A model generated the notes under the pieces. The model made no database searches. It saw nothing but the letters and a program-made list of their open reading frames with translations, and had not been told where the DNA came from. From contig CM000436.1 in NCBI GenBank assembly GCA_000165345.1, positions 1,024,001 through 1,088,000 on the forward strand: DNA of 64,000 nucleotides. The letters are read 5' to 3'. This document shows, piece after piece, positions 1,478 to 58,194 of this stretch; position 1 is the first letter of the stretch; each line of letters begins with the position of its first letter. Position numbers and translations under genes: made by a program.

Positions 1478-2003
1478 GAGACTACTAATTGTTTTTATAT
1501 TACTTAACTTTGTTTTGTTTATTAATAAATATTTAAATAAGATTGTGGACTAAGATTATTAAGATTATTATTTAAAAAAAAGATAAATTTCTATAGTTGA
1601 TAAAAGTAACGAGAAGATTGTAATCAAATATATACAATTATCCTAAAAATATTAACTTTAAGGCTTATAAATAATAATGCCTATTTAATATTAAGAACCG
1701 CATAAATTTCAATCTTATAAATTATTAAGCCTATAAGATATAAATTTATTAAGGCTTCAAAACTTATTAAATTCAAAGTATTATATTCTTTACATTTTTT
1801 TTTTTATAGATCAAGATTCTTTAATCCTGATCAAAAAATCACCTATATTTACTAATACCATTGGGTATATTGCTTTAGCTCCAATACTAATAAAATATTT
1901 TCTTTCTATTTGTTTTTTCAAAGAAAAAGTTCCTTTTCTTCAATCTCTCTGTTTTTCTTTTCAAATTTGATATTTAATAATCTTTTTTTGACCATTTAAA
2001 TAT

Positions 2004-2014
2004 TTTGGCGGGCT
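2004..2014. promoter_or_regulatory. E2F-like site TTTTGGCGGGC upstream of Prp43 gene
   Basis: Matches E2F consensus TTTSGCGC. About 305 bp upstream of ATG 2319. Confidence 0.4.
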
Positions 2015-2318
2015 TTTGACATTTATATTTAATAATATTAATAATAATAAACTGTAATTAGTTGAAAAAAATATATAAGAGAATTAAATACAAGTAGAAA
2101 AGAAGAATTGAATAGAGAAGAAGCCCTACAATCTATTCTTAGAGTCTTTTGAACAACTCTAAAGGCCTCCCTTTTTTTTAATACAATCAATTAGACTTGT
2201 TAAAAAATTTGAACTCTGTATATATTTAAGACTAATAGTATTAATTGATATCAATTAAGGAAAAAAAAATAGAGAAAGAGATAATAAATATAAAGATAGA
2301 TAAAGATTATAGATAGAA

Positions 2319-15477: not shown

Positions 15478-18775
<3,298 letters not shown>

Positions 18776-18894
18776 TATATTAAAGTTAAGTTTTACTTAC
18801 TATTAGTTTTCTAATTATATATTTTAATTAGATTTGATCTTTTGACTTTTCTTCTCTTAGAGAGAGAGAGAAAAATGTTAATGTAAATTCTGAT

Positions 18895-28237: not shown

Positions 28238-30886
28238 TTAACACATATCATACATTATCTTTGTGATTGCATATCTTGACAATATCATGCTTGTTCCTAT
28301 TGGATTTGAACTTGTATGCTTGCTTAAAACTCCTTCATCTAATATAAATAAGTTTTCAGCCCCAATCAACTTAAGACAATCTGTCTCTACAACTTGCCCT
28401 ATAGCAGTTGTACCAACAAATTCATTTCCAGGTTTTACATTCTTCTTTATATATTCTCTGATTTGTTCAGGATAAGTTGGAAGTTTTGGAAGAATTAACG
28501 GTAAGGACTTCCATAAACTTGGCTCGTTATTCTTACTTCTATCTTCCCTCTCATTAATGATTGTTTCACCTTTTCTAAGACCAAAAAAATTATACCTTGA
28601 ATCAATTCTATTATTAATTGAAGCTGAAGCATCATATTTCATCAAAGTTATATCATCTTTTTCCTCATCTCTTCGTGATTTATCAAATTTATGCATAATA
28701 CTATAATATGAAGACTGCATTCCTTCATTTTGAAATCTAAATTTATCATGTATTTCCTTCAAATAATTAAATCTACCGTTATTACTTTTTGTTTGATCGT
28801 TAGATAAGTCACCTCTTTTATCAAATATCTCCAAACCTTTTCGCACATTAGCTACCTTTTCTTCCTCTTCTTCTTCTTCTTTCTGATCAATTTCTTGTCT
28901 CTCAGCTTCTAGATTATTAAAATTCATATTTGAATCATTTTCCTTTTCTTTAATATGCCCATAATTTTGATTTTGGCTTGCATAATAAAGTGATATATTG
29001 CTCAAATTACATCTCTCATGATTCATTTCTGTTCCAATTGCTCTTGAAGTACTTGTATAATTATGATTAGAATTACCAAAGTCTGCAAAATTTAAAAGTA
29101 ATTTCCTTTCCACATGGTCACCAAACAAGTTCACTCTTTTATGAGTACTATTATTTGGTACTAATAAAGTAGATATATTTATAGATCTAAATAATCTAAC
29201 GAGTCTTCTAAAGCCTGCCTCCAATATTAATAAATCATTAATATCTTCCAATAGTCCCAACCTTATTTTTGGTCTCTTGTTATTTTCATCCCATAATACC
29301 TCCCCTTCACTATATGGATTTGGAACTCGAATAGTTACACCACGAATTAGTGCTGAACATTCTTTACCGATGTTTTGTTCCGAAAAAACTTCACTAATAT
29401 TATTAGTAAAACCTTCGAATTCTGAAATACTCACAGACTCACAACCTTGTATAATATCATCCCTTTCTTCTTGTTTCTTGCATTTAGCTCCAAACTTACG
29501 CTTTGAAAAGAGTGCTTCCGAGCTAGGAATACGAACATTATCAGTACTTAATCCTCTAAAGAAACCAAATATACTTAGACTAGGATGATCTCTTAATCCT
29601 TTTCCAACATATTCATTTTCAATAATTGGATTTTTTATACCAGGACTTGAAATCTGAATATCTTCTTTACTTCCAACTCCACTTCTTTGAAGTATCATTG
29701 GAGTATTTAATGCACCAGCTGATAATATTATTTTTCCTTTTCCAGATTTGATACAGTATTTTTCAATTTTTGAATAAACTTCTTCTTTCATTCTTGAATA
29801 ATTATACCCTCCAGTTAACCTTTTTCCTTGAATACATTCCGCAAACTTGTCATTTTCTCTTTGATCTTTATCTAAACTTGAAAATATGACTTTATCCACA
29901 TGAAAATTAAGTATCTTAAATAATTTTTTATGATTAACTAATCTTGGATCAATTTTTAAAAGTCTAGTTGCACTTCTTCTTTCAAAACTTCTTCTAAATC
30001 CATAAGTTAAGAATGTATATGGAACATAATGAGAAGATGTGAAGTACTCTGGAGCACCGCTATTGAAAGATTCTAGGTTATTATCTTGATTGGTTGCCAT
30101 ATAATCTTGGTAATATTCATTTTCTACAATATCTGTTTTCCATTCCAAATTGTTATCTCGAATTCCAAATGAACTTACATATCCACTTTCTGTCATTTCA
30201 TTTTCAAATAATGAATCTTCTGGTGCTAAGTCTTCTTCATTTGTATCTCCAACGTGGAATGTTCCTGTTTCATTAAATGCTCTCTCTAAAGCTATTACCC
30301 ATGATGTTCTTACATTTGGTTGTACAATATCTCCAACACTTTTCACAAATTCAAAAGATTCTTGTAATCTTTGTGGATCAAAATTTAAACCTAATGATTT
30401 ATAATATTCTCCACTATATACATCTTCGGGAATAAATGGAGTATTGCCATAACTTGTCTTTCCTCCTTCAATACTTGAATCAAATATCATATATCCATCT
30501 TCAGATGTATATATATTAATATCGTTTTTATCAATGATGGGATTATAACTTGAATTCAATTTTTTATTATTTTCATTATTATTTTTTTTATTATCTTTAG
30601 TCTGTTTTTCATCATTCAATTCATTTTCTTTATATTCTCTTCCTTTATCCACAATCAAAATACTAATTTCGTCCCCTCTTCTGGTATATTTTTCTAGTAA
30701 GCTTCTTGCTGTTATTAGTCCATTTGCACCTGCACCAACAATTATATAATCAAATTTGATACCACTTGGTACTTGATCATTGTCATTGTAGGTTTCAATC
30801 CCATATGTATTTCTTGATTTTAAAATTATTGAAATAATTACCAACAAAATTGTCCTTTTTAATAAAAATATAACAGAAAAGGCCAT
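28238..30886 (-). CDS. secreted GMC-family (glucose-methanol-choline) FAD oxidoreductase with large insertions
   Basis: Signal peptide MAFSVIFLLKRTILLVIISIIL. FAD-binding DYIIVGAGANGLITA. GMC signature 2 GALNTPMILQRSGVG. C-terminal GMC domain GTTAIGQVVETDCLKLIGAENLFILDEGVLSKHTSSNP. 882 aa against about 550-600 typical. Confidence 0.8.
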   Translation of the reverse strand: MAFSVIFLLKRTILLVIISIILKSRNTYGIETYNDNDQVPSGIKFDYIIVGAGANGLITARSLLEKYTRRGDEISILIVDKGREYKENELNDEKQTKDNKKNNNENNKKLNSSYNPIIDKNDINIYTSEDGYMIFDSSIEGGKTSYGNTPFIPEDVYSGEYYKSLGLNFDPQRLQESFEFVKSVGDIVQPNVRTSWVIALERAFNETGTFHVGDTNEEDLAPEDSLFENEMTESGYVSSFGIRDNNLEWKTDIVENEYYQDYMATNQDNNLESFNSGAPEYFTSSHYVPYTFLTYGFRRSFERRSATRLLKIDPRLVNHKKLFKILNFHVDKVIFSSLDKDQRENDKFAECIQGKRLTGGYNYSRMKEEVYSKIEKYCIKSGKGKIILSAGALNTPMILQRSGVGSKEDIQISSPGIKNPIIENEYVGKGLRDHPSLSIFGFFRGLSTDNVRIPSSEALFSKRKFGAKCKKQEERDDIIQGCESVSISEFEGFTNNISEVFSEQNIGKECSALIRGVTIRVPNPYSEGEVLWDENNKRPKIRLGLLEDINDLLILEAGFRRLVRLFRSINISTLLVPNNSTHKRVNLFGDHVERKLLLNFADFGNSNHNYTSTSRAIGTEMNHERCNLSNISLYYASQNQNYGHIKEKENDSNMNFNNLEAERQEIDQKEEEEEEEKVANVRKGLEIFDKRGDLSNDQTKSNNGRFNYLKEIHDKFRFQNEGMQSSYYSIMHKFDKSRRDEEKDDITLMKYDASASINNRIDSRYNFFGLRKGETIINEREDRSKNNEPSLWKSLPLILPKLPTYPEQIREYIKKNVKPGNEFVGTTAIGQVVETDCLKLIGAENLFILDEGVLSKHTSSNPIGTSMILSRYAITKIMYDMC

Positions 30887-31523: not shown

Positions 31524-34500
31524 ATGCCTCACTTTTACTCTTTAACTCTGGAGTCCCACGGGTCCATCTTGTCAGCAATCCAGGGGAGTTATAGTGCAGC
31601 AAAGGCCCATGAAATAGTTGTGAACAGAGGCAGAAGTCTTGAATTGTTGAGATTGGATGTGAATGCAGCCCAAATTCAGAGTATTTGTTTGATGGATACT
31701 TTCTCTTTGGTTAGAAGTATTAGCAATTTGAGATTGATTGGATCAGGCAAAGATCTAATAGTTGTAACAAGCGACAGTGGAAATATTGTAATTTTGGATT
31801 TTAACAAAGACAAAAACCAATTTGAAAGGATCCACTCTGAGCCATATGGCAAATCAGGATGTAGAAGAATTGTTCCAGGTCATTATCTTGCTGTTGATCC
31901 AATGGGCAGAAGTATAATGATTGCTGCAATTGAACGACAGAAGCTTGTTTATACTTTAACACGTAAAAATAAGGATGCAGATATTCTAGATATCTCATCT
32001 CCTATGGAGGCTCACAAAAGCCATATGGTTTGTTTTGCTCTAGTAGCAATGGATGTTGGATTTGATAATCCAATGTTTGCAACAATTGAACAATCATATT
32101 CTACAGAAAACGAAGAATTACAGCAAACAAAAAAACACCTAATTTTTTGGGAAGTTGATCTTGGTTTGAATTATGTTTCAAGAAAATCATCTCAAGTAAT
32201 TACAGAAAGTTCTCATACATTAATCTCAGTACCAGGTGGAAATGACGGACCAAGTGGAGTTTTGGTTTGTGATTATAAAGGTATTATATATTGTAAAATG
32301 GGCCATTCAAATATATTTTGTCCATATCCATTCAGATTTGGAGATTCTTCAGAGTATGGAACAATGATTGTGGCTTCATCTTTACATAAACTTAAAGGTT
32401 TCTTTTTAATACTAGTGCAAACAGAATTGGGAGATATTTACAGAATTAATTTAATACATAACGAAGGGATTGTTAAAGAAATGAGAATTTATTATTATGA
32501 TACTATACCTGTATGTAACTCGTTGCTTTTGTTAAGATCAGGGTTTCTTTTTGCATCACATGAATTTGGAAATCATACAAATTATCAAATTGTTTCACTT
32601 GGGGATGATAAAACTGATCCATATACTTCTTCTTTACCTGACTCTAATGATTTAAAAAGAGTTTATTTTAGGCCAAGAAATTGTCAATGCATACGTAAAT
32701 CCGAAGAAATACTATCTTTAAGCCCAATTACTGATATTAAAGTTATCGATACTAATAATGATGGTACACCACAAATTGTTGCTACTTGTGGTAGAGGTCC
32801 AAGATCTACATTACGTGTATGTTCATATGGAAAAAATGTTGAAGAAATTGCAGAAAATCCATTACCTGGTAGACCAAGATGTATATGGACTTTAAAGAAT
32901 GGTATTGATCCATCACTATCAGGTTCACAAGCTGAAGCTGCTATTTTGGATAATATACATCATTATATAATTATTTCATTTATTGATCGTTCGCTTGTGC
33001 TTACTATTGGTGAACATGTTGAAGAGACTAATGATACATTATTCACTTTAAATGAAACTACAATGTATGCTGCTTCTATGATATTTTATAATTCATTCCT
33101 CCAAGTTTTGGAGACACATGTAAAGTTAATTATTCAAGATAGAATTTATGACTGGAAAACTCCTGATTCAAGGAAAATTATTGCAGCTGATTCTAATGGT
33201 CGTCAAGTTTCTTTGGCATTAGAAGGAGGTTTAATAGTAATTTTGGAATTAAATGTTAATGGTGTTTCTGGAATTACCAATACGGGAATGGGAGGATTAG
33301 TTGAAGTGTGTAGAAGAGAAATCACTTGTGAAATCATATGTATTGGCATACAACAATTATCTTATTCAGGCCAGATGAGAAGTGATTATGTTGTTGTTGG
33401 TACATCTACAGAAAATGCCTTAAGACTTTATAAAATTGATTCAGCAGAAAAAAGGCTAAAGCAAACATGTACCCAGATCTTACCTAATTCAAATAGTATA
33501 CCAGAAAATGTTCAATTATATCATTCTAATAAATATGGCCACTTAATTTTATTTGTAGGTCTTACAACTGGTGTAATATTGAGTTGTAAAGTGGATGCAA
33601 GCAATGGTTCAATTAGTGATCCAAGAAGTAAATATTTGGGTAACAGAGGAGTGAATATATGTAGAATTATGAGAGAAGATTTTGGTGGTGAGATGAGTCT
33701 AGTATGTATGTCAAGCAGACCTTGGCTAGTTGATTCTCAGACTTCTGGTGTGAATTTTACACCATTACAATATAGATGTATTGATTCTATAGCTCCATTG
33801 AATACACATCAAGTTAACAATGGTTACGTAGCAGTTTCAGGATCCACCTTATTAATATTTCAAGTTACTCAAGGATTTGGTGAATCATTTTCTCAAAGTT
33901 CAATAAATTTAAGTTATACCCCACGTAAATTATTAACACTTCCTTCACCACAATTGTTTACTGGTTTAGAGACTTTAATGTCATCAGGTACTTTAGATAT
34001 TCCAAAGGATCAAATGATTGCAATAGTGGAGACAGATCATAATTCATTTGATTTTGGTACTAAAAAAGAGATTATTTTAGCACTTCAAAAACTTTATAAC
34101 GATAAACCTTTGGAAAATAATACAGATGTTAAAATGGAGGAAGTAGAAGAAGATGAAGAAAAACAAAAAAATGATTTAAAAGTTAAGGAAGATGGTGATA
34201 ATTTAGTAATGGATATTGCTCAAGATGAAGTTCAAGACTCTGAAAAAACAAAAATAGAAAAAATGTTATCAGAAATTGGTATACCAGGTGAAAGTGGTGT
34301 ACTACTTGCAGAGAGTGAAGTTGGAGGATTTTTTGCAGGAGAAGGTAAATGGGGTGGTTGTGTAAGGATAGTTAATTTAAAATCAATGGAAACTATACAA
34401 TTAATACCACTTGATACAAACGAAGGATGCATTTCTGCTTGCGTTTGTAAATTTGATGAGTTAGATTTGCCATGCTTAGTGCTTGGAACAGTATATGGAA

Positions 34501-35477
34501 TGAAACTTAATAGAGGATATAATAATAATAATAGTAATAATAGTACTGATTCAGCAAAGAATAATGATAAAGAAAATCACGATTCTTTTGGAGCAGCAAT
34601 AAAGATATTCAAGTATGATTCAAATTATAATTTTGAATTAGTGCATATAACTCCTATTGAAAATTCAGCAACAGCATTAACTGGTTGGAGAGGAAGATTA
34701 TTGGTAGGTATTAACAAGACTTTAAGGGTTTATTCACTAGGAAAGAAGAGACTTCTTAGGAAGTCAGAATATAGAAATATTCCACAAGGTTTAACTTGGA
34801 TTAAAGTAGTTAATGATCGTATTTTTGCTGGTGATATTTCAAATGGTGTTTTAGTTTTCAAGTTTAATAATACATCAAATCAATTTATACTTGTAGCAAA
34901 AGACCCAATGCCAAGATGGTTAACTTCTGCATGTGAGGTATTGGATTATCACACAATTGCAGTAAGCGACAAATTTGATAATATTATTGTATCAAGAGTA
35001 CCAGCTGAAGCTTCTGATGATTTTTCCTTTGTAACTTCATTTACTGATAATAATAATAGTCAATCATCTGCGCTAATGAGAACACACCAGATTAACACTG
35101 TAGCTCAATTTCATCTTGGCGATATTGTTACATGTTTACAAAAATCGCAATTAACACCAACGTCTGCAGAGGCAATTATATATGGTACAGTACTTGGTAG
35201 TATTGGATCGTTATCTCCTATATTAAATAATGAAGATATTGAGTTATTATCAAAACTTGAAATACTATTACGTAAGCAAAAATCAACTTTATTATCAAGA
35301 GATCATCTTATGTTTAGGTCATATTATTCTCCAGTACATAATGTAATTGACGGCGATTTTTGTCAGACTTTTACTATTTTAGATAGCCAAATTCAGTCAG
35401 AAATTGCTTCTAAACTAGATGTTACTGTTGAGGAAATCTACAAGAAGCTTGATGATTATAAGACAAGGTTATTTTAA
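31524..35477 (+). CDS. SF3B3: splicing factor 3B subunit 3 (SF3B3/SAP130/Rse1)
   Basis: The N-terminal 190 aa align nearly residue-for-residue with SF3B3 (EIVVNRGRSLELLRLD, GKSGCRRIVPGHYLAVDPMGRSIMIAAIERQKLVYTLTR, DVGFDNPMFATIE). Full-length triple-propeller architecture with acidic and poly-N insertions. Confidence 0.9.
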   Translation: MPHFYSLTLESHGSILSAIQGSYSAAKAHEIVVNRGRSLELLRLDVNAAQIQSICLMDTFSLVRSISNLRLIGSGKDLIVVTSDSGNIVILDFNKDKNQFERIHSEPYGKSGCRRIVPGHYLAVDPMGRSIMIAAIERQKLVYTLTRKNKDADILDISSPMEAHKSHMVCFALVAMDVGFDNPMFATIEQSYSTENEELQQTKKHLIFWEVDLGLNYVSRKSSQVITESSHTLISVPGGNDGPSGVLVCDYKGIIYCKMGHSNIFCPYPFRFGDSSEYGTMIVASSLHKLKGFFLILVQTELGDIYRINLIHNEGIVKEMRIYYYDTIPVCNSLLLLRSGFLFASHEFGNHTNYQIVSLGDDKTDPYTSSLPDSNDLKRVYFRPRNCQCIRKSEEILSLSPITDIKVIDTNNDGTPQIVATCGRGPRSTLRVCSYGKNVEEIAENPLPGRPRCIWTLKNGIDPSLSGSQAEAAILDNIHHYIIISFIDRSLVLTIGEHVEETNDTLFTLNETTMYAASMIFYNSFLQVLETHVKLIIQDRIYDWKTPDSRKIIAADSNGRQVSLALEGGLIVILELNVNGVSGITNTGMGGLVEVCRREITCEIICIGIQQLSYSGQMRSDYVVVGTSTENALRLYKIDSAEKRLKQTCTQILPNSNSIPENVQLYHSNKYGHLILFVGLTTGVILSCKVDASNGSISDPRSKYLGNRGVNICRIMREDFGGEMSLVCMSSRPWLVDSQTSGVNFTPLQYRCIDSIAPLNTHQVNNGYVAVSGSTLLIFQVTQGFGESFSQSSINLSYTPRKLLTLPSPQLFTGLETLMSSGTLDIPKDQMIAIVETDHNSFDFGTKKEIILALQKLYNDKPLENNTDVKMEEVEEDEEKQKNDLKVKEDGDNLVMDIAQDEVQDSEKTKIEKMLSEIGIPGESGVLLAESEVGGFFAGEGKWGGCVRIVNLKSMETIQLIPLDTNEGCISACVCKFDELDLPCLVLGTVYGMKLNRGYNNNNSNNSTDSAKNNDKENHDSFGAAIKIFKYDSNYNFELVHITPIENSATALTGWRGRLLVGINKTLRVYSLGKKRLLRKSEYRNIPQGLTWIKVVNDRIFAGDISNGVLVFKFNNTSNQFILVAKDPMPRWLTSACEVLDYHTIAVSDKFDNIIVSRVPAEASDDFSFVTSFTDNNNSQSSALMRTHQINTVAQFHLGDIVTCLQKSQLTPTSAEAIIYGTVLGSIGSLSPILNNEDIELLSKLEILLRKQKSTLLSRDHLMFRSYYSPVHNVIDGDFCQTFTILDSQIQSEIASKLDVTVEEIYKKLDDYKTRLF

Positions 35478-38768: not shown

Positions 38769-39839
38769 TTAGATCTTAGTGAATTTGGCTTGAATCCAAA
38801 CTCTTTGCATAGTAACTTGAGTTTTTCTATTAACAACTTCTCTAAGACAATAGTGATTTGAGATTACTTTGAATCCTGCATTAACAAATAAATTTTCAAT
38901 TTCTTCAATAGTAAAATAGTATGCGAATGTTCCATCATATCTAACATAAAAATTATCTGTGATTTTAGATTTACTTGATTTAGCAAATCTGAGTTGTGCC
39001 ATATCATACCTACCGTAATCTCTAAAAAGTAAAGTAGCTCCAGATTTCAGAGATTTTGAGCATCTTGTAATTACATCCTGGTGATGTTTTGGATGTATTG
39101 CAGATAATACAAAGATTAATAAGCCAAAATCTGCAAAACTTTCGGGACAAATATATGTTGGTATATCAGAATGTACTATATCAAATACAAATCCTCTAAA
39201 TCTAGTGCATGGCTTATCTGAATCTTTTAAACAATTAAATGGACATATTTTTGAATTTTTTTCATTATTTTCATTATTTTCAAGATTAGCCAAAATCTTA
39301 TTCCATCTTTCTTCAAATAAAGAAATTGCTCTTGAAGAACAATCAAATCCAATACAATGTAAATCCTTTGAAATTTGTAATAATGGTATTAAAGAATTAC
39401 CTACTCCACATCCAAATTCAATTAATACTTTAGGATTCATATCATCTGATATATTTGTACTATTAGAAATTAACTCTTTAAACTCCTTATCTATCCAATG
39501 TCTATCTAGAAAGAAGTTTATATTATTTCTTTTATAAAACTTATCCCAATTCTTTACAGATTCCTTTATATATTTGTCTATTAAAAAGTTAAACCAATAT
39601 TAATTACATTCAATTTTTTTTAATTTCTATTTAACTCACCTTTCCAAAATTCTGTAATTGTATCTTTATCTGAATTAATAATTTCTTGAGCTTTACTTAT
39701 TATATCCTCAGTTAATTCAAATTTTCGAACTTATTATTTAAGTTAATATTCCCCACTTTTTTTAAAATAATATTATAAACTTACCTACTTCACTGTCATA
39801 GAAATCTAAATTTCCATCCTTAATTGACTGAGCTTCCAT
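38769..39839 (-). CDS. METTL2/METTL6-like tRNA m3C methyltransferase, 3 exons
   Basis: Exons are 39839..39785, 39729..39640, 39577..38769. Introns run GTAAGT..AAG and GTGAGT..TAG. The spliced N-terminus gives WDKFYK..FFLDRHW. Motif I LIEFGCGVGN. CIGFDCSSRAI and the C-terminal NFYVRYDGTFAYYFTIEEIENLFVNAGF are all METTL2/6 hallmarks. The track shows only the 3' exon. Confidence 0.7.
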
Positions 39840-40116: not shown

Positions 40117-40130
40117 GTTGGCGCCAAAAG
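40117..40130. promoter_or_regulatory. palindromic E2F-like site GTTGGCGCCAAAAG (divergent METTL/KRI1 promoter)
   Basis: Lies between starts 39839(-) and 40395(+). Confidence 0.45.
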
Positions 40131-40394: not shown

Positions 40395-42431
40395 ATGAAG
40401 GATTTATTAGATTCAGATGGAGAATCTGGAAATCTCCATGATACCAATACTTTAAAGATTAATGAAGATTACAAAAGAAAATATGATGAAAGAAAGAGAA
40501 AAGAAGCTTTATCAAAAGCAAAAGAACTATTAAAAAATGATAGAGAAGGAGAAGATGATGATGAGAGCTATTCTGAGTCAGATTCATCAGATGAAGATGA
40601 GGATTCTGATGCAGAACTTTTGGACTTAAAGACTCAAAATAAAATACTTGAAACTTTGGATAAAATAAAAAAGAAGGATCCTAGCATTTATGATAACTCG
40701 CATGTAATATTTCCAGATTCATCGGATGAATCTGATGATTCTAATGAATCTGATATAAAATCAAGTAATTCTAATACCCAAAAAAATAGTAAACCAATGA
40801 CTTTTAAAGATTACGAAAGAGAGATTTTATTAAAATCTCAAAATGATGAAGAAGATAATGAAATAGTTAAAAAAGGAATATCTAAGAAATTAGGTTATGA
40901 TAAGGAACAAGATGAGCTAAAGAAAGCATTTCTTAAAGCAGCAGAAGGATTAGATGAAAGTGAAGACGAGTTATTTTCTGGAACTCTGATTAAGAAAGAT
41001 AAAAGTAAGGAAGAGCTTGAAGAAGAAGAAAGAAATTTTAAATCATTCCTTACACGTAATATAGAGGAAGGAGGAGATCCAATAGAATCTTTAAATAGAT
41101 ATTGGGGTCCTGAGGAAGATTTGGATGAAAATGAAAAGTTTTTAAGAAATTATATATTAAATCAAGAATGGAAAGAATCCAATAGTCAGAAAAGAATTAA
41201 TGATGAAAACTCATCAAGTTATACAATTCAGACAGAAATGGACGAAGAAGAAGATGAGAAACATTTGGAATTATCAAATGAATTTGAAGGTATATATAAT
41301 TTTAGATACGAAGAACCAGGAGCTAACCAACAGATTATGGGATACTCTAGAGATATATCATCCCTAAGAAGGCCAGATGAACGTAGAAAACTGAAAAGAA
41401 AAGAAAAAAAAGAGAGAAAAGCTGAGGAAAAGCTTAGAATGGAGGAGGAATTAAAGGTTTTAAAGAGTATGAAGAGGAAGGAAATTATTGAAAAGCTTAA
41501 AAAGATTCAAGAAGTTTCAGGAATTAGCTGTATTTCAGATGAAAAGTTGGATTTGGAAGGAGATTTTGATCCTGATAAACATGATAAATATATGGAGGAG
41601 CTCTTTGATGATGATTATAATGAAAAGAAGGAAGATCTTTCATTATGTGAGATTTTGGAAAATAATGATGAAGGATTGAATGAATTAAGTGATGGGAATA
41701 TAAAAAATGAGAAAGAGGCCAAAAAACATAAAAAGAAGCTTTTAATGAAAGAAAACCAATTAAATGACGAATCAGAAATAAAACCACCATCTACTTATGA
41801 AGATGATGACTATGTATGGTGGCAATGTGATGGTTGTTTGAAAGAGATTCTTCCAAATAAGAAAAAATTTGATTGTAAAGTTTGTGAGAACTTTACTCTT
41901 TGTAAGTCTTGTTGTAGAAATACCAACCACGAGCATCCTCTTGAAAAGAGTCGTGTACCAGAGCCAATTAATAAAGAATTTAATGATAATGAAGAAGCGG
42001 AAATTGATGAAATGACCAGTTCTAACAGGCTGAATTTGAGATATGGAGACAATGAAAAGATTAATAGTTTGTTGGATGAATATTATAGTCTCCATTTTGA
42101 AGATGTTTTAGACAATGGTAAGATGCCAGTTAGATTTAAGTATACAAATGTCGAAAAGAATGACTATGGACTTAGTGTTGAAGATATTTTATCAATGGAT
42201 GATAAAGCATTGAATCAACATATTTCTTTAAAGAAGCTGGCTCCATATAGGGTTGATAAGAAGAGAAAGTATTCACCACCAGTAAATACTTCAAATGAAG
42301 CAAAATCTTCGAATAATATGAACAAGAAGCATCATAATAAGGGTAATAAATTCAAACGAAGTTATTCAAATAATAAGAATTCATTAAATACATCCCATAT
42401 TAATAAGCATCGTCTTGAATCTTACTATTAA
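40395..42431 (+). CDS. KRI1: KRI1 ribosome-biogenesis protein homolog carrying an embedded ZZ-type zinc finger
   Basis: Acidic Ser/Asp N-terminus. FRYEEPGANQ motif. C-terminal KRI1 domain LNQHISLKKLAPYRVDKKRKY. Between them sits WWQCDGCLKEILPNKKKFDCKVCENFTLCKSCCRNTNHEHP, matching the ZZ finger pattern C-x2-C...C-x2-C...H-x-H. Confidence 0.65.
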   Translation: MKDLLDSDGESGNLHDTNTLKINEDYKRKYDERKRKEALSKAKELLKNDREGEDDDESYSESDSSDEDEDSDAELLDLKTQNKILETLDKIKKKDPSIYDNSHVIFPDSSDESDDSNESDIKSSNSNTQKNSKPMTFKDYEREILLKSQNDEEDNEIVKKGISKKLGYDKEQDELKKAFLKAAEGLDESEDELFSGTLIKKDKSKEELEEEERNFKSFLTRNIEEGGDPIESLNRYWGPEEDLDENEKFLRNYILNQEWKESNSQKRINDENSSSYTIQTEMDEEEDEKHLELSNEFEGIYNFRYEEPGANQQIMGYSRDISSLRRPDERRKLKRKEKKERKAEEKLRMEEELKVLKSMKRKEIIEKLKKIQEVSGISCISDEKLDLEGDFDPDKHDKYMEELFDDDYNEKKEDLSLCEILENNDEGLNELSDGNIKNEKEAKKHKKKLLMKENQLNDESEIKPPSTYEDDDYVWWQCDGCLKEILPNKKKFDCKVCENFTLCKSCCRNTNHEHPLEKSRVPEPINKEFNDNEEAEIDEMTSSNRLNLRYGDNEKINSLLDEYYSLHFEDVLDNGKMPVRFKYTNVEKNDYGLSVEDILSMDDKALNQHISLKKLAPYRVDKKRKYSPPVNTSNEAKSSNNMNKKHHNKGNKFKRSYSNNKNSLNTSHINKHRLESYY

Positions 42432-42657: not shown

Positions 42658-43740
42658 TTATACAACTTTTTCACCATTCACAGTAATTTGAGGATTAAAC
42701 CCAAGTGAATCTTTAACAACAACATGTTGGTTTCCTTTGGATTTCAACCAATTAACAACATTAGACTGTACATTTCCTGCCATTTGAATTTGTTTCCTTG
42801 CAATTTGTTCAATCCATCTTTAAATTTTAATAATTAGTAAGAAAATAAAATGATATAAACTTGAAATATAAATATACTACATATACTTACCTTAAATCTT
42901 TTGTAGTAAGTGCAGGTACTCCTAATGAAGAATCTGATAATCCAGTATTTTCTATAGTACCCATATTTTTTGAGAATGTAATTCCACTATTCTTGCAGAA
43001 TATCTGAGTAATTATCAAATAAGTTAATATGATAATTTTGTATAAATTTGAATTAATTCAAATAAATAAAAAAAACTTACAGCTTCTGTCAACTTATTCA
43101 TCATTTCGTTTCTCTCTTCGTCAGACTTTGCACACATAACTACAGGTGATCCATCGAAATACATTCTGAAACATTTTCTGCTATTTTGAACAGATTCCAA
43201 AGGAACCTCAATTTTATTAAGTGAGAAACTTCTTACAAGGCTTTCTGGATTTTTTAGGTCTGTCATAAATAATAAATCATCCTTAGTAATTTTTACTCCA
43301 AGAAGATCGACATCGAAAATATTTCTTGGATCCAAAGCTAAAGCTAATTCACCTGAAATCATTACAGAACAGACAGGATCTCTTGGTGAATCAACTACTG
43401 GCATACTAGTAACAACATCTCTTTGCTTTAATTTATTATTTGTAGCATCATTCATTGCTTTTTGGTAAACTGAAACAGCTGATGAAACTGCTTCACTATA
43501 AAGCTTTTCAGAATCTTTCTGGCTTATCTGGGATTTACCTTCCCCAATTACTGATACTGGTTCGACATTTGCACCGATTATTTTTCTTGCAGTTTGTATT
43601 AAAGTTGTGATTGTACCAGGTAAAAATTGTGGCTCTAATAAACCAAAATCTGATGTTGAACGGGTTAATCTTGCATGAGCATATTGGCTCAATCCTGCTA
43701 TTGATAGTAAATTAATCAAAAAGAAAATTCTCATTTTCAT
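42658..43740 (-). CDS. hypothetical secreted protein, 3 exons
   Basis: Exons are 43740..43081, 43003..42891, 42817..42658. Both donors are GTAAGT; acceptors are CAG and AAG. Signal peptide MKMRIFFLINLLSIAGLSQYAHA. No family recognised. Confidence 0.5.
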
Positions 43741-45954: not shown

Positions 45955-46581
45955 TTATTCATCATTTGATCCTATCTTCATGTTTGCAAGTTGTTGTAAA
46001 GCAAGTGTATCGGAAATAGACATGCTACCGAATCTAACAGGTGCAAAAGATATTGATGATTCTCTTTGAATTGGGCTAGAAACCTCGAAACTTGCATTAA
46101 AATCTTCATTTGGCTCATCATAGTGCTCAGTTTTTGACTTAATGGGAATATTAGTCTCGTCTGAATCACTCTTATCTTTATGTTTGAGACCTCTTTTAAA
46201 CTTCGCAACCGCTTCAAATTGAGCTCTTACATGTTGTAATGTTACACGTCTTCTAGATACCATTGCAGCTAATCTTGCTCTTTGTTTATAAGCATCCACT
46301 ACCTCCTCTTTAGTGTGTGCTAGTGATTGCTGCCTAACTAAATAAGAACGCTCTATGGCTCCTTTCAAACCACCTGAATTGCTAAAACTGATATTTCTTA
46401 GCAATTCACGAGTATTTTGATTAATTATTTGTCTTGTTTCCTCTGGTAACTGTGTTTCATCAAACTCTATATTACTCTCAAACGGAATCAACTTCTTATG
46501 AATCTCTTCATCAAGCTGAGAATCCTCAGCTTCTTCTGAAGCCATCAGCTGTTCTCCATATTCGTTTACTCCATTATCCAT
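45955..46581 (-). CDS. hypothetical acidic protein
   Basis: 208-aa ATG ORF, no motif recognised. Confidence 0.35.
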   Translation of the reverse strand: MDNGVNEYGEQLMASEEAEDSQLDEEIHKKLIPFESNIEFDETQLPEETRQIINQNTRELLRNISFSNSGGLKGAIERSYLVRQQSLAHTKEEVVDAYKQRARLAAMVSRRRVTLQHVRAQFEAVAKFKRGLKHKDKSDSDETNIPIKSKTEHYDEPNEDFNASFEVSSPIQRESSISFAPVRFGSMSISDTLALQQLANMKIGSNDE

Positions 46582-47638: not shown

Positions 47639-48544
47639 TTACTCCTTCTTCTTAATAGGTCTATAAACCCCAATAACTACAGCATGATCTCTATGATAAG
47701 GTTCAAGAGTAAGCTGTTCCTTTGGTTTACATTTTTCGGCTCTTAGTTTATCTATTTCAGATGCAAAAACAGCCTCTGGTTTTGCAGTAGAATCTACGCA
47801 ACTTGCCTTAATAGATATTATAAAGTATCCATTATTCTTAAGGAAAAGATGAGCATTTAAAGCTACTATACGAGCTTGGTCAGGCTGGGCAACATCAGAA
47901 AAGATAACATCGACCATTGGAACAAGCATTCTATACTTTTGAGGAGTTCTTGCATCCTCTACAATAGGAACAATATTCTGACGTCTTTTAGCCATATCTG
48001 TCAAATCTCTTCCAGATCTGTGACTAAACTCTACAGCATAAACACTACCTTCCGGGCCGACCATATCTGATACATGAGAAACTGTTGTTCCATTAGCTGC
48101 TCCCAAGTATAATACCTTTGCTCCTGGTTTAATTGGCATATTAGCAACACCTCCAATAATAGTTGCTCCCAACTTCGATCTAAATGGATTCCAAACACGG
48201 TATTCAATCTTTTCATTAGTCTCAGGATCTGTTGTCTCTACTCTTTTTTCACCATAAATTGAAACACCTGGTACCATATTTCTGGTTACTAATGCATCAC
48301 TCTTACCTTTTGCCATAAAAACACCTTCATGTCTGTGAGGAACAATTATTACTTTTGACCCTCCCTTCATTCCTCCACCTCCTCCTCTACCTCCTTTACC
48401 TCCACCTCTTCCTCTACCTCCACCTGGACTTCTTCCTCCTCCACCTCGGCCTCCACCCGGACTTCTACCTCCACCTCCTCTTCCTCCACCTCTCCCTCCT
48501 CCACCTCGGCCTCTTCCTCCAAATGGACTGCCTCTTGAACTCAT
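47639..48544 (-). CDS. NOP1: fibrillarin (Nop1), box C/D snoRNP 2'-O-methyltransferase
   Basis: N-terminal GAR domain ([13 protein letters not shown]...). The methyltransferase core aligns throughout with fibrillarin ([66 protein letters not shown]). Confidence 0.95.
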
Positions 48545-49313: not shown

Positions 49314-51611
49314 ATGGCTTCAATTTTAAGTCAAGAAGCTGAGAAGCGGCAAGATTCTCATCCTGTGACCCTTCAATTGTCAAATCGTCTAGTCAATTTC
49401 GTTTCTGGAGGATTTTTGGCCAACAAAACAGGTATAGAGTCTTCTTCTTACGTTTCAGATAATTCCCAGATCTCAGATAAAACACAGAAACATATGGACA
49501 AATTAAAAGAAAAAGAACAAATTGAAAATAATGTTCCATTAGCAAAGCCAGAATACTATTATTTCCCTCCAGAATTACTCACTGATGCAAGAGATTTTCT
49601 TGAACCAAAAGAAATCTCTCACTTCAGACCATATGGTAGAGGATTAGCTAATCCTGGTTGGAATACATGTTATTTTAATTCTATTTTACAAGCATTAACT
49701 TATGCACCTTATCTTTCAATTGATTGCTTAAGGAGGAATCACCAAAAGATTTGTAAACATATGAAAGACCATTTGGTTTGTATTATGTGTATGTTTGAAG
49801 ATCATGTTAATATTATGTTGGATAATACATCCAAATCTAATACAAAAAATGACCAACCAGTAGTTTCTAGTTTTATCAAATGTGCTCAAAAATTAATATG
49901 GAAAAGATTTAGAATTGGAATGATGCATGATGCACAAGAATTTCTAAGGTATTTCTTAGAAGCTTTACATAAATCTTGTTTACCTAAGAATTTACAAACT
50001 GATCAAACTTTTAGGAAAATACATCCTATTGCAGCTTCAACAACTTATATTGGTCAACTATTTTGTGGATTCTTTCTTTCTAGGATTGTATGTCATAATT
50101 GTCAATATACTTCCAATACATATGACCCATTTATGGATGTACCACTTGATATTATGGGGGTATCGAATTTAGAAAATGCTCTCAAATTATTTACTAAAAT
50201 TGAATATCTTAAAGGTGAAAATAGATATATGTGTCCAAAATGTAATCAGAGATCTGATGCTTCAAAACAACTTCTAATTGAGAAACTTCCTCCACTATTA
50301 ACAATTCAACTTAAGAGATTTAGTTATGTAGGACATGGAAGTAGAAAACCTAACAAAGCTATCAATTTTTCAGATGTTTTGGATTTACAACCATATATGT
50401 CTTCTAAGACTTATTCTGAATCTAAAGTATCTTCATCTAAATCTGAATCCTCTTATATTTACAAATTATGGGCTGTAGTATGTCATTCTGGTAATACTTT
50501 ATCTTGTGGTCATTATTATACCCATGCTAAGAGTATTGACAACAAATGGTATTGCTTTAATGATGATTACGTTAAACCAACAAGAATAGAAAATGTATTA
50601 AATGAGAATCATAAGGCTTATTTGTTGTTTTACTATAGGAGTGATTTTAATAAATATGACTTACTTAAGGATTCTGGTGTCTCCATAGAGTCTTTAGGGA
50701 AATCTCAGATCATTACTCCTTTAGCTCCTGAAATATCATTTATAAATCTTCAACTTAAATCAAACTCAAAATCCTCTATAAATGGTAAAAATAATAATTC
50801 TAAAGAATCATCAAATTCTGAATCAAATTTGAATGAATTTTTGGATCAATTATTAACAAATAAGTCTAAAGGAGAAAGAGATTTAGCCCAAAATCAAGAT
50901 CAAGATCCAAATTTACAATTTTATCAGAACCAACAAAATAATAACAATATTAGACTAGTTTTGAATCCAATAATAAATACGGATGTAAATAATGAAAAAT
51001 TAGATTCAAAGATTTCTATAATATCTAAAAATGAGCAAACAGAAAAGATTATTAAGGCTAAGATTTGTAATTTCAAGCTTAGATCCTTATTACTATGCGA
51101 TAATTGGATTACTAGATCCAAATCAAGAAGGAATTTAGCAACCATTTTTTATCTTAAGAAATTAAAGAAACTTGGATTATCAATGAACTACTTTATTAAA
51201 TCAAAATCAGGAAATTGTTCAAATGGAAAAGTTTTGATTAGTAATATTAACAAGAGTCAAATAGACACTTGGGAAGATCTTAATTTATCTAATGATACTA
51301 TTACAAGCTTGGAACAAGCTCAAAAATCTCTTCTTGCTCGTTCAAATATTAGATCAGATTATGATAAGGAATATGATAAAGGTAAAGTTAAAAAACCTCT
51401 AAGACAGGCTATTCTAGCTTCTACAAGTTCCAATAATAATAATGAAAAGAATACTAATAGTAAATTCCAAGCTAAAAAATCAGCATTTATGGAAAAGAGC
51501 AATATAAAAGATTTGGATACCTTAAGTACTAGTGAACTATTTGATATTGCTTTTAAGAATAAAGGTAACTTAAAGAACAAAAATAAAAGAAAAAATGTTA
51601 GAATTAGATAA
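49314..51611 (+). CDS. ubiquitin carboxyl-terminal hydrolase (USP/UBP family deubiquitinase)
   Basis: Cys box GLANPGWNTCYFNSILQAL and His box YKLWAVVCHSGNTLSCGHYYTHAK..WYCFNDDYV. Long S/N/K-rich C-terminal tail. Confidence 0.85.
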   Translation: MASILSQEAEKRQDSHPVTLQLSNRLVNFVSGGFLANKTGIESSSYVSDNSQISDKTQKHMDKLKEKEQIENNVPLAKPEYYYFPPELLTDARDFLEPKEISHFRPYGRGLANPGWNTCYFNSILQALTYAPYLSIDCLRRNHQKICKHMKDHLVCIMCMFEDHVNIMLDNTSKSNTKNDQPVVSSFIKCAQKLIWKRFRIGMMHDAQEFLRYFLEALHKSCLPKNLQTDQTFRKIHPIAASTTYIGQLFCGFFLSRIVCHNCQYTSNTYDPFMDVPLDIMGVSNLENALKLFTKIEYLKGENRYMCPKCNQRSDASKQLLIEKLPPLLTIQLKRFSYVGHGSRKPNKAINFSDVLDLQPYMSSKTYSESKVSSSKSESSYIYKLWAVVCHSGNTLSCGHYYTHAKSIDNKWYCFNDDYVKPTRIENVLNENHKAYLLFYYRSDFNKYDLLKDSGVSIESLGKSQIITPLAPEISFINLQLKSNSKSSINGKNNNSKESSNSESNLNEFLDQLLTNKSKGERDLAQNQDQDPNLQFYQNQQNNNNIRLVLNPIINTDVNNEKLDSKISIISKNEQTEKIIKAKICNFKLRSLLLCDNWITRSKSRRNLATIFYLKKLKKLGLSMNYFIKSKSGNCSNGKVLISNINKSQIDTWEDLNLSNDTITSLEQAQKSLLARSNIRSDYDKEYDKGKVKKPLRQAILASTSSNNNNEKNTNSKFQAKKSAFMEKSNIKDLDTLSTSELFDIAFKNKGNLKNKNKRKNVRIR

Positions 51612-55191: not shown

Positions 55192-58100
55192 ATGGCTAAA
55201 AATAATGGAATAAAAGATCTGAGTTCAGCTTTTAATGTAGTAAAGTATNANNAGNAAGATCCTCATTTGAAAGTAATAAAGAGTAGAAATTCTAGTAAAA
55301 TAGAAAATTCATTAGATAAGAGAAAAGATAAATTGGGATTTAACGATCGTGATTTCCTTGAAAGAAAGAGGTCTATACTTAAAGAGTTATATTCAGAGGG
55401 AAGGAAGAGTGAATTTAATGATGAGAGAGAGAAGTTTGCTTTAAGAAAAGATTCTATTGGAGATAATTATCAGACTTTAATAGCTACTAAGCAATTAAAG
55501 AAGAAAGTTAAGAAGAGAAAGAATAACTTTAATTTGGACGAAGAAGAAGATGATGATAATGATTATAGAGGACATTCTGGTGAAAATTTAAATAATACTA
55601 GTACTAATGATTTAGAATTCACTCATCAAGGAAAATCTATTTCAGCCTTGGATGATAAGGCTATTCGTAAATATGATGGTAATATAGATGAGGATAATGA
55701 TTTCGATGATAATGATTATACTGGTAGCCGTAAAGGAGATAGTATTTTAGATGAGAAGAATATGCCAGGTTTTTTCTTTGGACAAGGAAATTCAGATGGA
55801 ACTTCTACTAAGTCTAGACAGGAGATATTTAAAGAAATTATGCAAAAGAGTAAGCTTGCAAAGATGGAGATGAAGAGACATAGAGAAAGTCTAGAGGAGG
55901 AGTTGGTTAATTTAGATAGTGCATTTTCTCAAGTTCAATCAATGCTTAGTTATAAACAGTCAAGAAAAGACAGAGTCAATTCTTTACTGAATAATATTAA
56001 TTCTAATTCTTCTGTTACTGATAATAATGGTAATGATAATAATATTCAGTCATCTGACAAGAATATTGAAGAATTGGATGAATATGAACAACTCAGAAAT
56101 CTTCTAAAGTTTGATACAAGAACTGGTGTTTCTGATAGAATTAAAACTGATGAAGAAATTGCAAAACTTAATGCTGAAAAACTTGAGAGGCTTGAAAAGG
56201 AGAGAAAAGAAAGAATGAATCTTGATGATTCCAATATTGACATTGACTTGAGTACTGAATCGGAAAATGAGTACTTTAAGGACGACTTTGATGATGAAGA
56301 TGGTGAAGAAGAGGACGGCTTTGAAGATGAAGAAGAAGATGAAGAAGAGGAAGAAGAAGAGGAAGAAGAAGAGGAGGAGGAAGAGGAGGAAGAAGAGGAG
56401 GAAGAAGAGGAGGAAGAAGAGGAAGATGAGGGACGGAAAGTAGAAAAGGACTGCTTTGAAGAGGAAGAAGAAGATGGGGAGGGGGAAGAAGAGGACGGTG
56501 AGGATGATGAGGAGAGAGTGAAACCCGCATCTAAAGGATTCATTGATTTCGAATTAAATGAAATTGATGAAATTGATTGGTTGGTGAACGATGAATCTGA
56601 ACCAAATTTACCATTTAGTGTTAATTTGAAGAAAATCTTGAAGGAATATAGTTTGAAGGGACTTATGGAATTTATGAATGGATTTTCTCCAAAATCTCAA
56701 TGGAAATTTATTTGCAGATTTAGATCATGCTTTAATAAGGGAGATACTGCAATGTTGAATGACTTAAAACTTCTTATTGGTTTTCTTATTAAATATCCAT
56801 TAAATTGTCTAAGAACAGCAGAATCAGATTCTGAAAAGAAGAATATTTTTCAATTTATTATTAATTATCTTAAGCTTATGAGTAGTCATTTATTATTTAT
56901 GGCAGAAACTGATCCAAAAGAATGCCTTATCATTTTCACTTACTTTACATTTGAAATTTGTCATACAACATTTCCAAGTGTTTATCACAAATATAAAAAA
57001 GTTGAAAAGTTTTTAAATGATAATCTTTTAAATGTAGAAAATGAAAACTATTATACTGAAATATTAGAAGAATGTCCATCTTTATACCAACTTTCTGAAG
57101 ATATATATGAACTGACTTTAGAACATATTGTGATATGTAGAATGATGTTTATATTATTCCCAGTTACTGATGCTCAACATCCAATATTAACTCCAGTTAT
57201 TATATGCTTGGAACAATGGGCTCACAGATGGAGTCAAGTTGGGAAATCTTTACTAAACACTAACACACCAGATCAAGATAGTGAAGAGTTTAAATACAAC
57301 CAAATAAGGCTTGTTGGGGGTAGTAACCCAAATATTAGTTGCATGATTGGAGTAATCTGTCTATTGGAGATATCTAGTATTGGTTATGCAAATAGTAAAT
57401 CAAATAATAATGGTAATGAATTGCTTGAAAGATTTAGTATTGGTTACTTTACTTTATCATTAAGTTGCCTTAAATGGCTGTTATTGTCTGATCCTGATAA
57501 TAATATTTCCATTGAAGAAAAAAGAATTTCATTATCAATAGGAATTCTTAAATCTTTAATTAGAGTAATTTCTGCTTTTAAAGATTTACAAGGGTTCCAT
57601 GCTATTATTATTCATCTTATCCGTGAAAATATCAAACAAATTAATGAATCATTAATGAAGATGGATAATTGTAAAGTATTGTTAAATTTGGTTTCTGAAA
57701 TTGAATCGATCTCTACAGAAATTGCCAATAGACCTCAAAAACCAATTAGTCTTTGTCCAAGACAAACTCCAACAATTAGATCTTTGATTCCCAAAATTGA
57801 TGATCCATCTGTTCCATTTGCTGCAAAAGCTATGCTTAGAGCCAAACATGGTCCCAAAGAATCCCAATATGAACATGAAAAGAAACATTATTTGTCTAGA
57901 TTGAAAAAAGAAGTCAATACTGCTAGAAGACAAGCCAGTAGACAACTTAGAAAAGATTCACAAGTGATTGCAAGTGCATGGCATGAAAATAGAACGGAAA
58001 AATCCAATAAACAAAATGCCAAGTATAATTCCTTCATGAAGATGTTAGAAGACGACCAAGCTGAATATAAGAGGATGAAGACTACAGGTGGAACCATGGA

Positions 58101-58194
58101 TACTTCAATTCAATCTTATAGAGCCAATAAACAAAACAAGAAGAAGAATCAAAAGATGGCTGGTAATAAAACTGCCAATGGTCTTGTCCACTAG
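55192..58194 (+). CDS. NOP14: Nop14 (Utp2)-like nucleolar SSU-processome protein with poly-Glu tract
   Basis: IKTDEEIAKLNAEKLERLEKERKERM and the C-terminal LIPKIDDP...LSRLKKEV..RQLRKDSQVIA match conserved Nop14 blocks (RTKTEEEKAKEEAERL..LEAERLRRM; FIPKFEENFNP...LRELRKDSRFLA). A 26-residue E-run is encoded by a GAA/GAG repeat at 56330-56450. Ambiguous bases at 55249-55255. Confidence 0.6.
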   Translation: MAKNNGIKDLSSAFNVVKYXXXDPHLKVIKSRNSSKIENSLDKRKDKLGFNDRDFLERKRSILKELYSEGRKSEFNDEREKFALRKDSIGDNYQTLIATKQLKKKVKKRKNNFNLDEEEDDDNDYRGHSGENLNNTSTNDLEFTHQGKSISALDDKAIRKYDGNIDEDNDFDDNDYTGSRKGDSILDEKNMPGFFFGQGNSDGTSTKSRQEIFKEIMQKSKLAKMEMKRHRESLEEELVNLDSAFSQVQSMLSYKQSRKDRVNSLLNNINSNSSVTDNNGNDNNIQSSDKNIEELDEYEQLRNLLKFDTRTGVSDRIKTDEEIAKLNAEKLERLEKERKERMNLDDSNIDIDLSTESENEYFKDDFDDEDGEEEDGFEDEEEDEEEEEEEEEEEEEEEEEEEEEEEEEEEEDEGRKVEKDCFEEEEEDGEGEEEDGEDDEERVKPASKGFIDFELNEIDEIDWLVNDESEPNLPFSVNLKKILKEYSLKGLMEFMNGFSPKSQWKFICRFRSCFNKGDTAMLNDLKLLIGFLIKYPLNCLRTAESDSEKKNIFQFIINYLKLMSSHLLFMAETDPKECLIIFTYFTFEICHTTFPSVYHKYKKVEKFLNDNLLNVENENYYTEILEECPSLYQLSEDIYELTLEHIVICRMMFILFPVTDAQHPILTPVIICLEQWAHRWSQVGKSLLNTNTPDQDSEEFKYNQIRLVGGSNPNISCMIGVICLLEISSIGYANSKSNNNGNELLERFSIGYFTLSLSCLKWLLLSDPDNNISIEEKRISLSIGILKSLIRVISAFKDLQGFHAIIIHLIRENIKQINESLMKMDNCKVLLNLVSEIESISTEIANRPQKPISLCPRQTPTIRSLIPKIDDPSVPFAAKAMLRAKHGPKESQYEHEKKHYLSRLKKEVNTARRQASRQLRKDSQVIASAWHENRTEKSNKQNAKYNSFMKMLEDDQAEYKRMKTTGGTMDTSIQSYRANKQNKKKNQKMAGNKTANGLVH

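Follow-up and report, generated by a model that had tools for sequence, protein, structure and literature searches.

KRI1 of Cryptosporidium carries an inserted ZZ-type zinc finger

A window of 64,000 nucleotides of Cryptosporidium DNA (GenBank assembly GCA_000165345.1, contig CM000436.1, positions 1,024,001 to 1,088,000 of the forward strand) contains, at 40395..42431 (+), a gene identified by its sequence as an orthologue of KRI1, a Krr1-interacting factor that belongs to the early 90S/small-subunit processome. The encoded protein holds an inserted segment that, judged by profile, predicted fold and ligand pattern, is a true ZZ-type zinc finger, predicted to bind two zinc ions. Both the KRI1 identity and the inserted finger had been proposed in a first-pass annotation of the window, and both were borne out. 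Krr1 binding and a role in the 90S particle and 18S rRNA maturation, known for yeast Kri1 (PMC12095548), would extend to this protein by orthology.

The open reading frame (ORF) is complete and intron-less, with one uninterrupted frame of 678 amino acids (aa) plus stop. Its product shares 99% identity with a KRI1-like protein of C. hominis (P0001) and 98% with the 'KRR1 interacting protein 1' of C. tyzzeri. The Pfam domains Kri1 (PF05178; aa 340-425, 56.5 bits against a cut-off of 25.2, E = 4.3e-15) and Kri1_C (PF12936; aa 554-627, 89.1 bits against a cut-off of 25, E = 2.2e-25) were both matched above their gathering scores, and a KRI1 family profile matched yeast Kri1 (PDB 9g25_I) with E = 1.6e-42 over three collinear stretches, indicating full-length homology. 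Hundreds of KRI1 homologues were recovered by the searches. The two motifs singled out by the first-pass annotation, FRYEEPGA (aa 303-310, nucleotides (nt) 41301-41324) and LKKLAPYR (aa 612-619, nt 42228-42251, inside Kri1_C), were both present.

As in other KRI1 proteins, the overall build consists mostly of extended helices and disordered acidic linkers. The N-terminal and central helical region (aa 1-339; 40395..41411, +) aligned with residues 52-203 and 213-449 of yeast Kri1 and contains the conserved motifs FLRNYIL and NFRYEEPGA, with F249, L250 and E298 invariant in 144 KRI1 sequences. Its helices were predicted with a moderate predicted local distance difference test score (pLDDT) in a full-length model built from the 144-sequence alignment, and from work on the yeast protein (PMC12095548; bioRxiv 10.64898/2026.09.04.749427) this region would correspond to the Krr1-binding part. 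The Pfam Kri1 domain (41412..41669, +) follows as a long K/E-rich helix, and residues 330-375 were predicted as helical in the same model. Next comes a first linker (aa 429-471; 41679..41807, +), poorly conserved (16% mean identity among Cryptosporidium species) and predicted to be disordered (pLDDT <50); the 50 residues at aa 425-474, which adjoin it, have a net charge of -5. The ZZ-type finger and its conserved C-terminal strand occupy aa 475-522 (41817..41960, +). A second linker (aa 523-553; 41961..42053, +), acidic, poorly conserved (27% identity among Cryptosporidium species) and largely predicted to be disordered (pLDDT <50 at aa 528-547), is the site of a second ZZ-like finger in many ciliate homologues, and leads to the Kri1_C domain (42054..42275, +), which aligned with residues 478-572 of yeast Kri1.

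Evidence for the ZZ fold

The peptide WWQCDGCLKEILPNKKKFDCKVCENFTLCKSCCRNTNHEHP, quoted in the first-pass annotation as the zinc finger, was located at aa 475-515 (nt 41817-41939). The peptide itself was therefore read correctly, but the interval given for it, 41815-41945, was not: it starts 2 nt before the true start at 41817, and its translation from the first base is nonsense because the register is off by 2 nt. The segment contains the pattern C478-x2-C481-x12-C494-x2-C497-x5-C503-x2-C506-x5-H512-x-H514, which has the ligand order of a ZZ domain. In ZZ domains, one zinc ion (Zn1) is held by four Cys and the other (Zn2) by two Cys and two His, in a zig-zag order (PMC6098011). From this scheme, C478, C481, C503 and C506 are inferred to be the Zn1 ligands and C494, C497, H512 and H514 the Zn2 ligands. 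The spacing between the pairs (x12, x5, x5) closely resembles the one in p62 (x10, x5, x5). Seven of the nine Cys of the protein fall within the 30 residues of aa 478-507, the Cys/His pattern was reproduced in none of 5000 shuffles of the protein, and all eight ligand positions were invariant in 69 homologues that bear the finger.

Directly after the sixth ligand, the window protein has an extra Cys (Cys507, nt 41913-41915; C-K-S-C-C). It is probably not a ligand, since Cys at this position was confined to Cryptosporidium (13 of the 69 homologues, precisely the 13 Cryptosporidium proteins of the set) and 39 of the 69 have Phe or Tyr.

Profile comparisons at the family level pointed to the ZZ domain throughout. 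All 21 of the aligned homologous segments matched the Pfam ZZ model (PF00569), 16 of them at about the gathering score (E <= 2.4e-4), with a best E value of 3e-9, and precomputed PF00569 calls were present on many homologues, PF12936, PF00569 and PF05178 often being tabled together. When the 59-aa segment was searched with phmmer against the PDB, every significant match was a ZZ domain, as were nearly all of the weaker ones, the best being p300 (1.5e-4) and HERC2 (4e-4), then Nbr1, p62, CBP, BIG and KCMF1. A profile (A2) made from a 66-column ZZ alignment of 21 orthologous sequences gave 39 PDB matches, all to ZZ domains, led by p300 (E = 3.3e-9) and followed by Nbr1, CBP, HERC2, BIG, p62, KCMF1, MIB1 and Ada2. 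A single fragment was returned when a large protein database was searched with the same alignment.

Fold comparison of the predicted structure also identified a ZZ fold. Residues 481-520 were the most confident stretch of the full-length model (pLDDT 93-95), with the disordered linkers 429-471 and 528-547 on either side. Conservation was concentrated in the same place: mean pairwise identity within Cryptosporidium was 84% for the ZZ segment, compared with 70-78% for Kri1 and Kri1_C and with 16-27% in the linkers on either side, and against non-Cryptosporidium homologues it was 45%, compared with 32-34%. No other part of the protein is as well conserved, in 11 Cryptosporidium species and beyond, and the segment is therefore not an intron that splicing would remove.

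Distribution of the finger among alveolates

In total, 69 ZZ-bearing KRI1 proteins were found. The finger was present in all 12 Cryptosporidium orthologues retrieved and in 20 more distant KRI1 homologues of the first search, Paramecium bursaria among them, and 39 more ZZ-bearing representatives came from a profile search over 1.84 billion cluster representatives. The named sources were Cryptosporidium spp., Besnoitia besnoiti, Eimeria flavescens, Cardiosporidium cionae, Rhytidocystis pertsovi, Perkinsus marinus and Paramecium. For one further group, a search with the ciliate-like P0179 found no close relative with a name, and a ciliate source was deduced from eight in-frame stop codons that are read as Gln, as in the ciliate nuclear code. 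Every assignable source of a ZZ-bearing KRI1 is an alveolate (apicomplexans, Perkinsus, ciliates), and the hit lists contained no named KRI1 of an animal, fungus, plant, green alga or ichthyosporean that has the finger. Its position was identical in all ZZ-bearing homologues, between the Kri1 helix and Kri1_C.

The KRI1-ZZ gene in which these eight stops are translated as Gln lies at positions 1001-3250 of a locus in assembly GCA_024449665.1 (L001; contig JAANSW011414363.1), whose contig numbers point to millions of contigs, and is probably a ciliate sequence within the draft genome of another organism.

In a neighbour-joining tree calculated from 456 alignment columns with the ZZ segment masked, one split contained all 69 ZZ-bearing proteins and only six others. 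Four of these six had degenerate half-fingers, one was without the first C-x2-C, and one was without the whole region. The four half-ZZ proteins (P0186, P0209, P0202, P0217), which lie inside the ZZ clade, retained the four Zn1 Cys, the WW/WF motif and the trailing V-P, and had lost both Zn2 Cys and both His. This pattern probably reflects a single ancient gain with occasional decay, and a single ancient acquisition is also probable because all identifiable sources are alveolates. The insertion is old, often tandem-duplicated in ciliates and half-degenerate in a few lineages.

A second ZZ-like finger was found in 21 of the 69 proteins, mostly ciliate-like, 55-75 residues after the first, whereas Cryptosporidium and other apicomplexans had one finger only. 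The double-ZZ homologues comprised ciliate-like proteins (P0070, P0074, P0075, P0099-P0117, P0151, P0153, P0172) and others (P0168, P0170, P0215, P0263), and in the second finger of the ciliate-like group the second pair has the unusual spacing C-x4-C and the ending, CRGIGKSxHEH, is conserved. The genes of the P0168 and P0170 clusters lie on metagenome contigs, up to 76 kb long and drawn from several sources (JGI, ENA, Logan), and could belong to an uncultured small-genome protist.

The fusion had been proposed as lineage-specific. This holds at the level of Alveolata only: a Cryptosporidium-specific fusion was rejected, as the same insertion is spread over coccidia, Cardiosporidium, Rhytidocystis, Perkinsus and ciliates. 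The finger is thus an old alveolate domain accretion and not a Cryptosporidium innovation, with no sign of an unusual mechanism.

Comparison with known proteins and prior annotation

Yeast Kri1 and human KRI1 (PF05178 and PF12936; PDB 9g25, 9g28) share with the window protein the N-terminal helices, the FRYEE motif, the K/E-rich helix and a collinear Kri1_C, and for yeast Kri1 the likeness extends to the role presumed for the window protein within the Krr1-Utp23-Kri1-snR30 platform module during 90S assembly (PMC12095548). Where the window protein has about 125 residues of linker, ZZ and linker, yeast Kri1, whose structure was determined in the snR30-platform particle, has about 28. The statement that KRI1 proteins normally have no zinc module was confirmed for animals, fungi and plants, including the yeast Kri1 of PDB 9g25.

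The alveolate orthologues (Besnoitia besnoiti XP_029221533.1; Cardiosporidium cionae KAF8821900.1; Perkinsus marinus XP_002774257.1; Paramecium bursaria pb186bvf_013939; C. canis, C. felis and the chipmunk genotype) agree with the window protein in architecture, in the linker position of the ZZ and in a subfamily signature. They differ in that many ciliates have two tandem fingers and Cryptosporidium one, and in that Cryptosporidium has Cys507 (mostly Phe or Tyr elsewhere) and Asn499 (Asp in ciliates).

The combination of KRI1 and ZZ is already known at the annotation level, as the GenBank names of the C. canis, C. felis, chipmunk-genotype, Besnoitia and Cardiosporidium proteins include 'zz domain' or 'zinc finger, zz type domain-containing protein'. 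The literature search found no paper joining KRI1 with a ZZ-type finger, nor any on KRI1, Toxoplasma and the nucleolus, and the function of KRI1-ZZ therefore appears unstudied. Against this background, the additions made here are modest: that the identifiable sources are alveolates only and a single gain is probable, that the finger is the most constrained part of the protein, and that its pocket departs from those of the characterised ZZ domains that bind N-termini.

Putative ligand pocket of KRI1-ZZ

ZZ domains that read protein N-termini grip the free alpha-amino group of the ligand with an acidic triad, formed by D129, D147 and D149 in p62 and by D2709, D2728 and D2730 in HERC2. The first of these residues (p62 Asp129, HERC2 Asp2709) holds that group (PMC6197226, PMC6098011, PMC9001736), and substitution of the third abolishes ligand binding in both p62 (D149K; PMC6197226) and HERC2 (D2730A; PMC9001736). 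The counterpart of the first residue in KRI1-ZZ, Asp479, lies between the first two Cys and was invariant (69/69). In contrast, the second and third pocket residues of p62 and HERC2 (PDB 5yp8, 6ww3; PMC6197226, PMC9001736) are replaced by Asn499 and Thr501 in the window protein, leaving the triad incomplete. Across the family, position 499 (p62 Asp147, HERC2 Asp2728) is Asp or Asn, with Asn in Cryptosporidium, and position 501 (p62 Asp149, HERC2 Asp2730) is Thr in 52 of 69 homologues and Asp in none. Position 491, equivalent to p62 Arg139, is Lys or Arg in 64 of 69.

The best sequence matches, the p300/CBP ZZ domains (PDB 6ds6, 1tot), share with KRI1-ZZ the H-x-H ending and the K-[ML]-x-K strand that follows it. 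They differ in having C-E-D-Y-D-L-C where KRI1 has C-E-[ND]-[FY]-T-L-C; p300 moreover has Asn in place of the invariant Asp479, and the p300/CBP finger belongs to a histone acetyltransferase catalytic core and not to a ribosome-assembly factor. The KRI1-ZZ family has a signature of its own, W-[WF]-x-C-D-x-C ... [KR]-[FY]-[DE]-C-x2-C-[ED]-[DN]-[YF]-T-L-C-K-x-C ... H-x-H-x-[ML]-x-K-x2-V-P, and probably its own specificity. By residue comparison, its pocket departs systematically from those of the characterised N-terminus-binding ZZ domains, and since it differs at Thr501 the ligand is probably not a canonical free N-terminus (Arg N-degron or histone H3 tail). The binding of N-termini or H3 tails implied by the first-pass annotation is therefore doubtful.

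Proposed role and alternative explanations

In yeast, the N-terminal helices of Kri1 bind the KH domains of Krr1, and Kri1 clamps the snR30 H/ACA small nucleolar ribonucleoprotein to the 18S platform module, touching snR30 bases and Gar1 and holding uS15 between its two helical parts (PMC12095548). Loading of uS11 licenses the engagement of Kri1 (bioRxiv 10.64898/2026.09.04.749427). By analogy with these results, KRI1 is an extended protein that folds onto its partners. In the alveolate protein, the ZZ (aa 475-522) would form one rigid, autonomous globular bead on flexible tethers beside Kri1_C, expected by homology to hold two zinc ions in the usual zig-zag arrangement.

The preferred reading, held with moderate confidence, is that the ZZ gives alveolate KRI1 an extra docking module for use early in the assembly of the small ribosomal subunit. 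Such a module would tether KRI1, or the neighbouring Kri1_C, to a protein partner in the snR30/Krr1/uS11/uS15 platform-assembly module of the pre-40S pathway. The finger probably offers a short peptide-binding groove in which the invariant Asp479 and Lys/Arg491 are kept and Thr501 differs from the p62/HERC2/p300 type. The platform-module part of this proposal is based on the structure and biochemistry of yeast Kri1 (PMC12095548; bioRxiv 10.64898/2026.09.04.749427), and the protein-docking part on the known behaviour of solved ZZ domains (PMC6197226, PMC6098011, PMC9001736). As all of the solved ZZ domains that were matched bind proteins or peptides, an additional docking site is the most economical explanation.

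Several observations weigh against this reading. On the full-length window protein, the Pfam ZZ model (PF00569) scored only 13.2 bits (E = 0.079), and on the isolated segment 17.9 bits (E = 0.0027), both below the gathering score of 21.4. The acidic pocket of the characterised ZZ domains is incomplete here, and peptide binding is proposed by analogy. The alveolate-wide single gain depends on the sampled taxa, among alveolates Cryptosporidium, coccidia, Cardiosporidium, Rhytidocystis, Perkinsus and ciliates, and on a simple distance tree. The Pfam shortfall, which concerns the single sequence, was resolved by the orthologous-segment profiles and the fold comparison, and the Cys/His spacing is exactly that of the two zinc sites of a ZZ domain. 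That shortfall is also what would favour an artefact, in which the Cys/His cluster would have arisen by chance, or the segment would be mis-assembled or an unspliced intron absent from the mature protein. Such an origin is extremely improbable in view of the continuous reading frame, the conservation of the segment beyond Cryptosporidium, its identical position in Besnoitia and others, the outcome of the shuffles and the confidently predicted ZZ fold; an intron or a chance pattern was rejected on conservation and shuffles.

The finger might instead be a canonical reader that binds a free alpha-amino group (H3 Ala1 or an Arg N-degron) in the manner of p62, HERC2, p300 and Nbr1, which would couple KRI1 to chromatin or ribosomal DNA, or to degradation signalling. 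The invariant Asp479, the basic residue at position 491, the Asp or Asn at position 499 and the closeness to the H3-binding p300/CBP domains speak for such a function. It is nevertheless rather unlikely, given that the residue whose substitution abolishes binding in p62 (D149K) and HERC2 (D2730A) is never Asp in KRI1-ZZ, that the second acidic residue is Asn499 in Cryptosporidium, and that conservation of the N-degron residues does not extend to ZZ domains in general (PMC6098011). Alternatively, the ZZ could be a zinc knot without a specific peptide ligand, either contacting the pre-18S rRNA or an snR30-like small nucleolar RNA as a rigid, slightly basic bead, or merely spacing Kri1_C from the helical core. 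Its charge, a +2 island between two -5 stretches, would suit this role, as would the retention of only half of the finger in some lineages. However, all ZZ domains that the PDB searches matched are described as modules for binding proteins or peptides, and surface residues such as D479, W475 and T501 are conserved far more than a spacer needs, which makes a zinc knot unlikely. A bolder reading, put forward tentatively and considered quite unlikely, is that the Asp479/Thr501/Lys-Arg491 pocket has a new specificity and reads a defined terminus or tail on one of the pre-ribosomal partners of alveolates (uS15, uS11, Gar1 or a lineage-specific factor, for instance), as an alveolate-only checkpoint on assembly of the 40S platform.

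Should the ZZ have a specific ligand, it would mean an alveolate-specific wiring of an otherwise universal, essential step, in which Krr1, Kri1 and snR30 assemble the 18S platform. Because human KRI1 is without the module, parasite and host differ structurally at the ZZ, within an essential pathway, in the case of Cryptosporidium and the sampled coccidia; if the finger were a reader of new specificity, this difference could represent a parasite-selective vulnerability.

Genomic surroundings

The window is AT-rich (29% G+C), and the neighbours of KRI1 are ordinary eukaryotic housekeeping genes. Upstream lie genes for a GMC-oxidoreductase-like protein (28238-30886, -), an RSE1/DDB1/CPSF-A family beta-propeller protein (31524-35477, +) and a methyltransferase fragment (38769-39440, -), and downstream those for fibrillarin (47639-48544, -; PF01269, E = 6e-105) and a UCH-type ubiquitin hydrolase (49314-51611, +). 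With fibrillarin, the neighbourhood has a second gene for nucleolar ribosome biogenesis, located about 5 kb downstream of KRI1, and nothing points to a functional linkage. The ORFs at 43024-43740 (-; 238 aa) and 45955-46581 (-; 208 aa) had no Pfam match, and the first of them opens with a hydrophobic, signal-peptide-like stretch, MKMRIFFLINLLSIAGLSQYAHA.

Low-quality base calls in the assembly are marked by about 75 N characters, single or in short runs, scattered over 18546-20257 and 55249-55255. They overlap the ORFs 18895-19968 (-), 19525-20199 (+) and 20190-20993 (-) and the start of 55192-58194 (+), making the gene models of these ORFs unreliable.

The palindrome TGGCGCCA, an E2F/DP-like promoter motif, was found at 40119..40126, 269 bp upstream of the KRI1 ATG. 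Seven copies of this 8-bp site were observed in the window (4881, 10248, 11301, 12872, 26588, 40119, 48901), against 0.07 expected from shuffles. Its core matches the E2F/DP-like core [C/G]GCGC[G/C], described as the commonest upstream motif in C. parvum (PMC3734150), the count in the window agrees with the abundance known for this motif in promoters of that species, and the copy at 40119 is a possible promoter element of KRI1.

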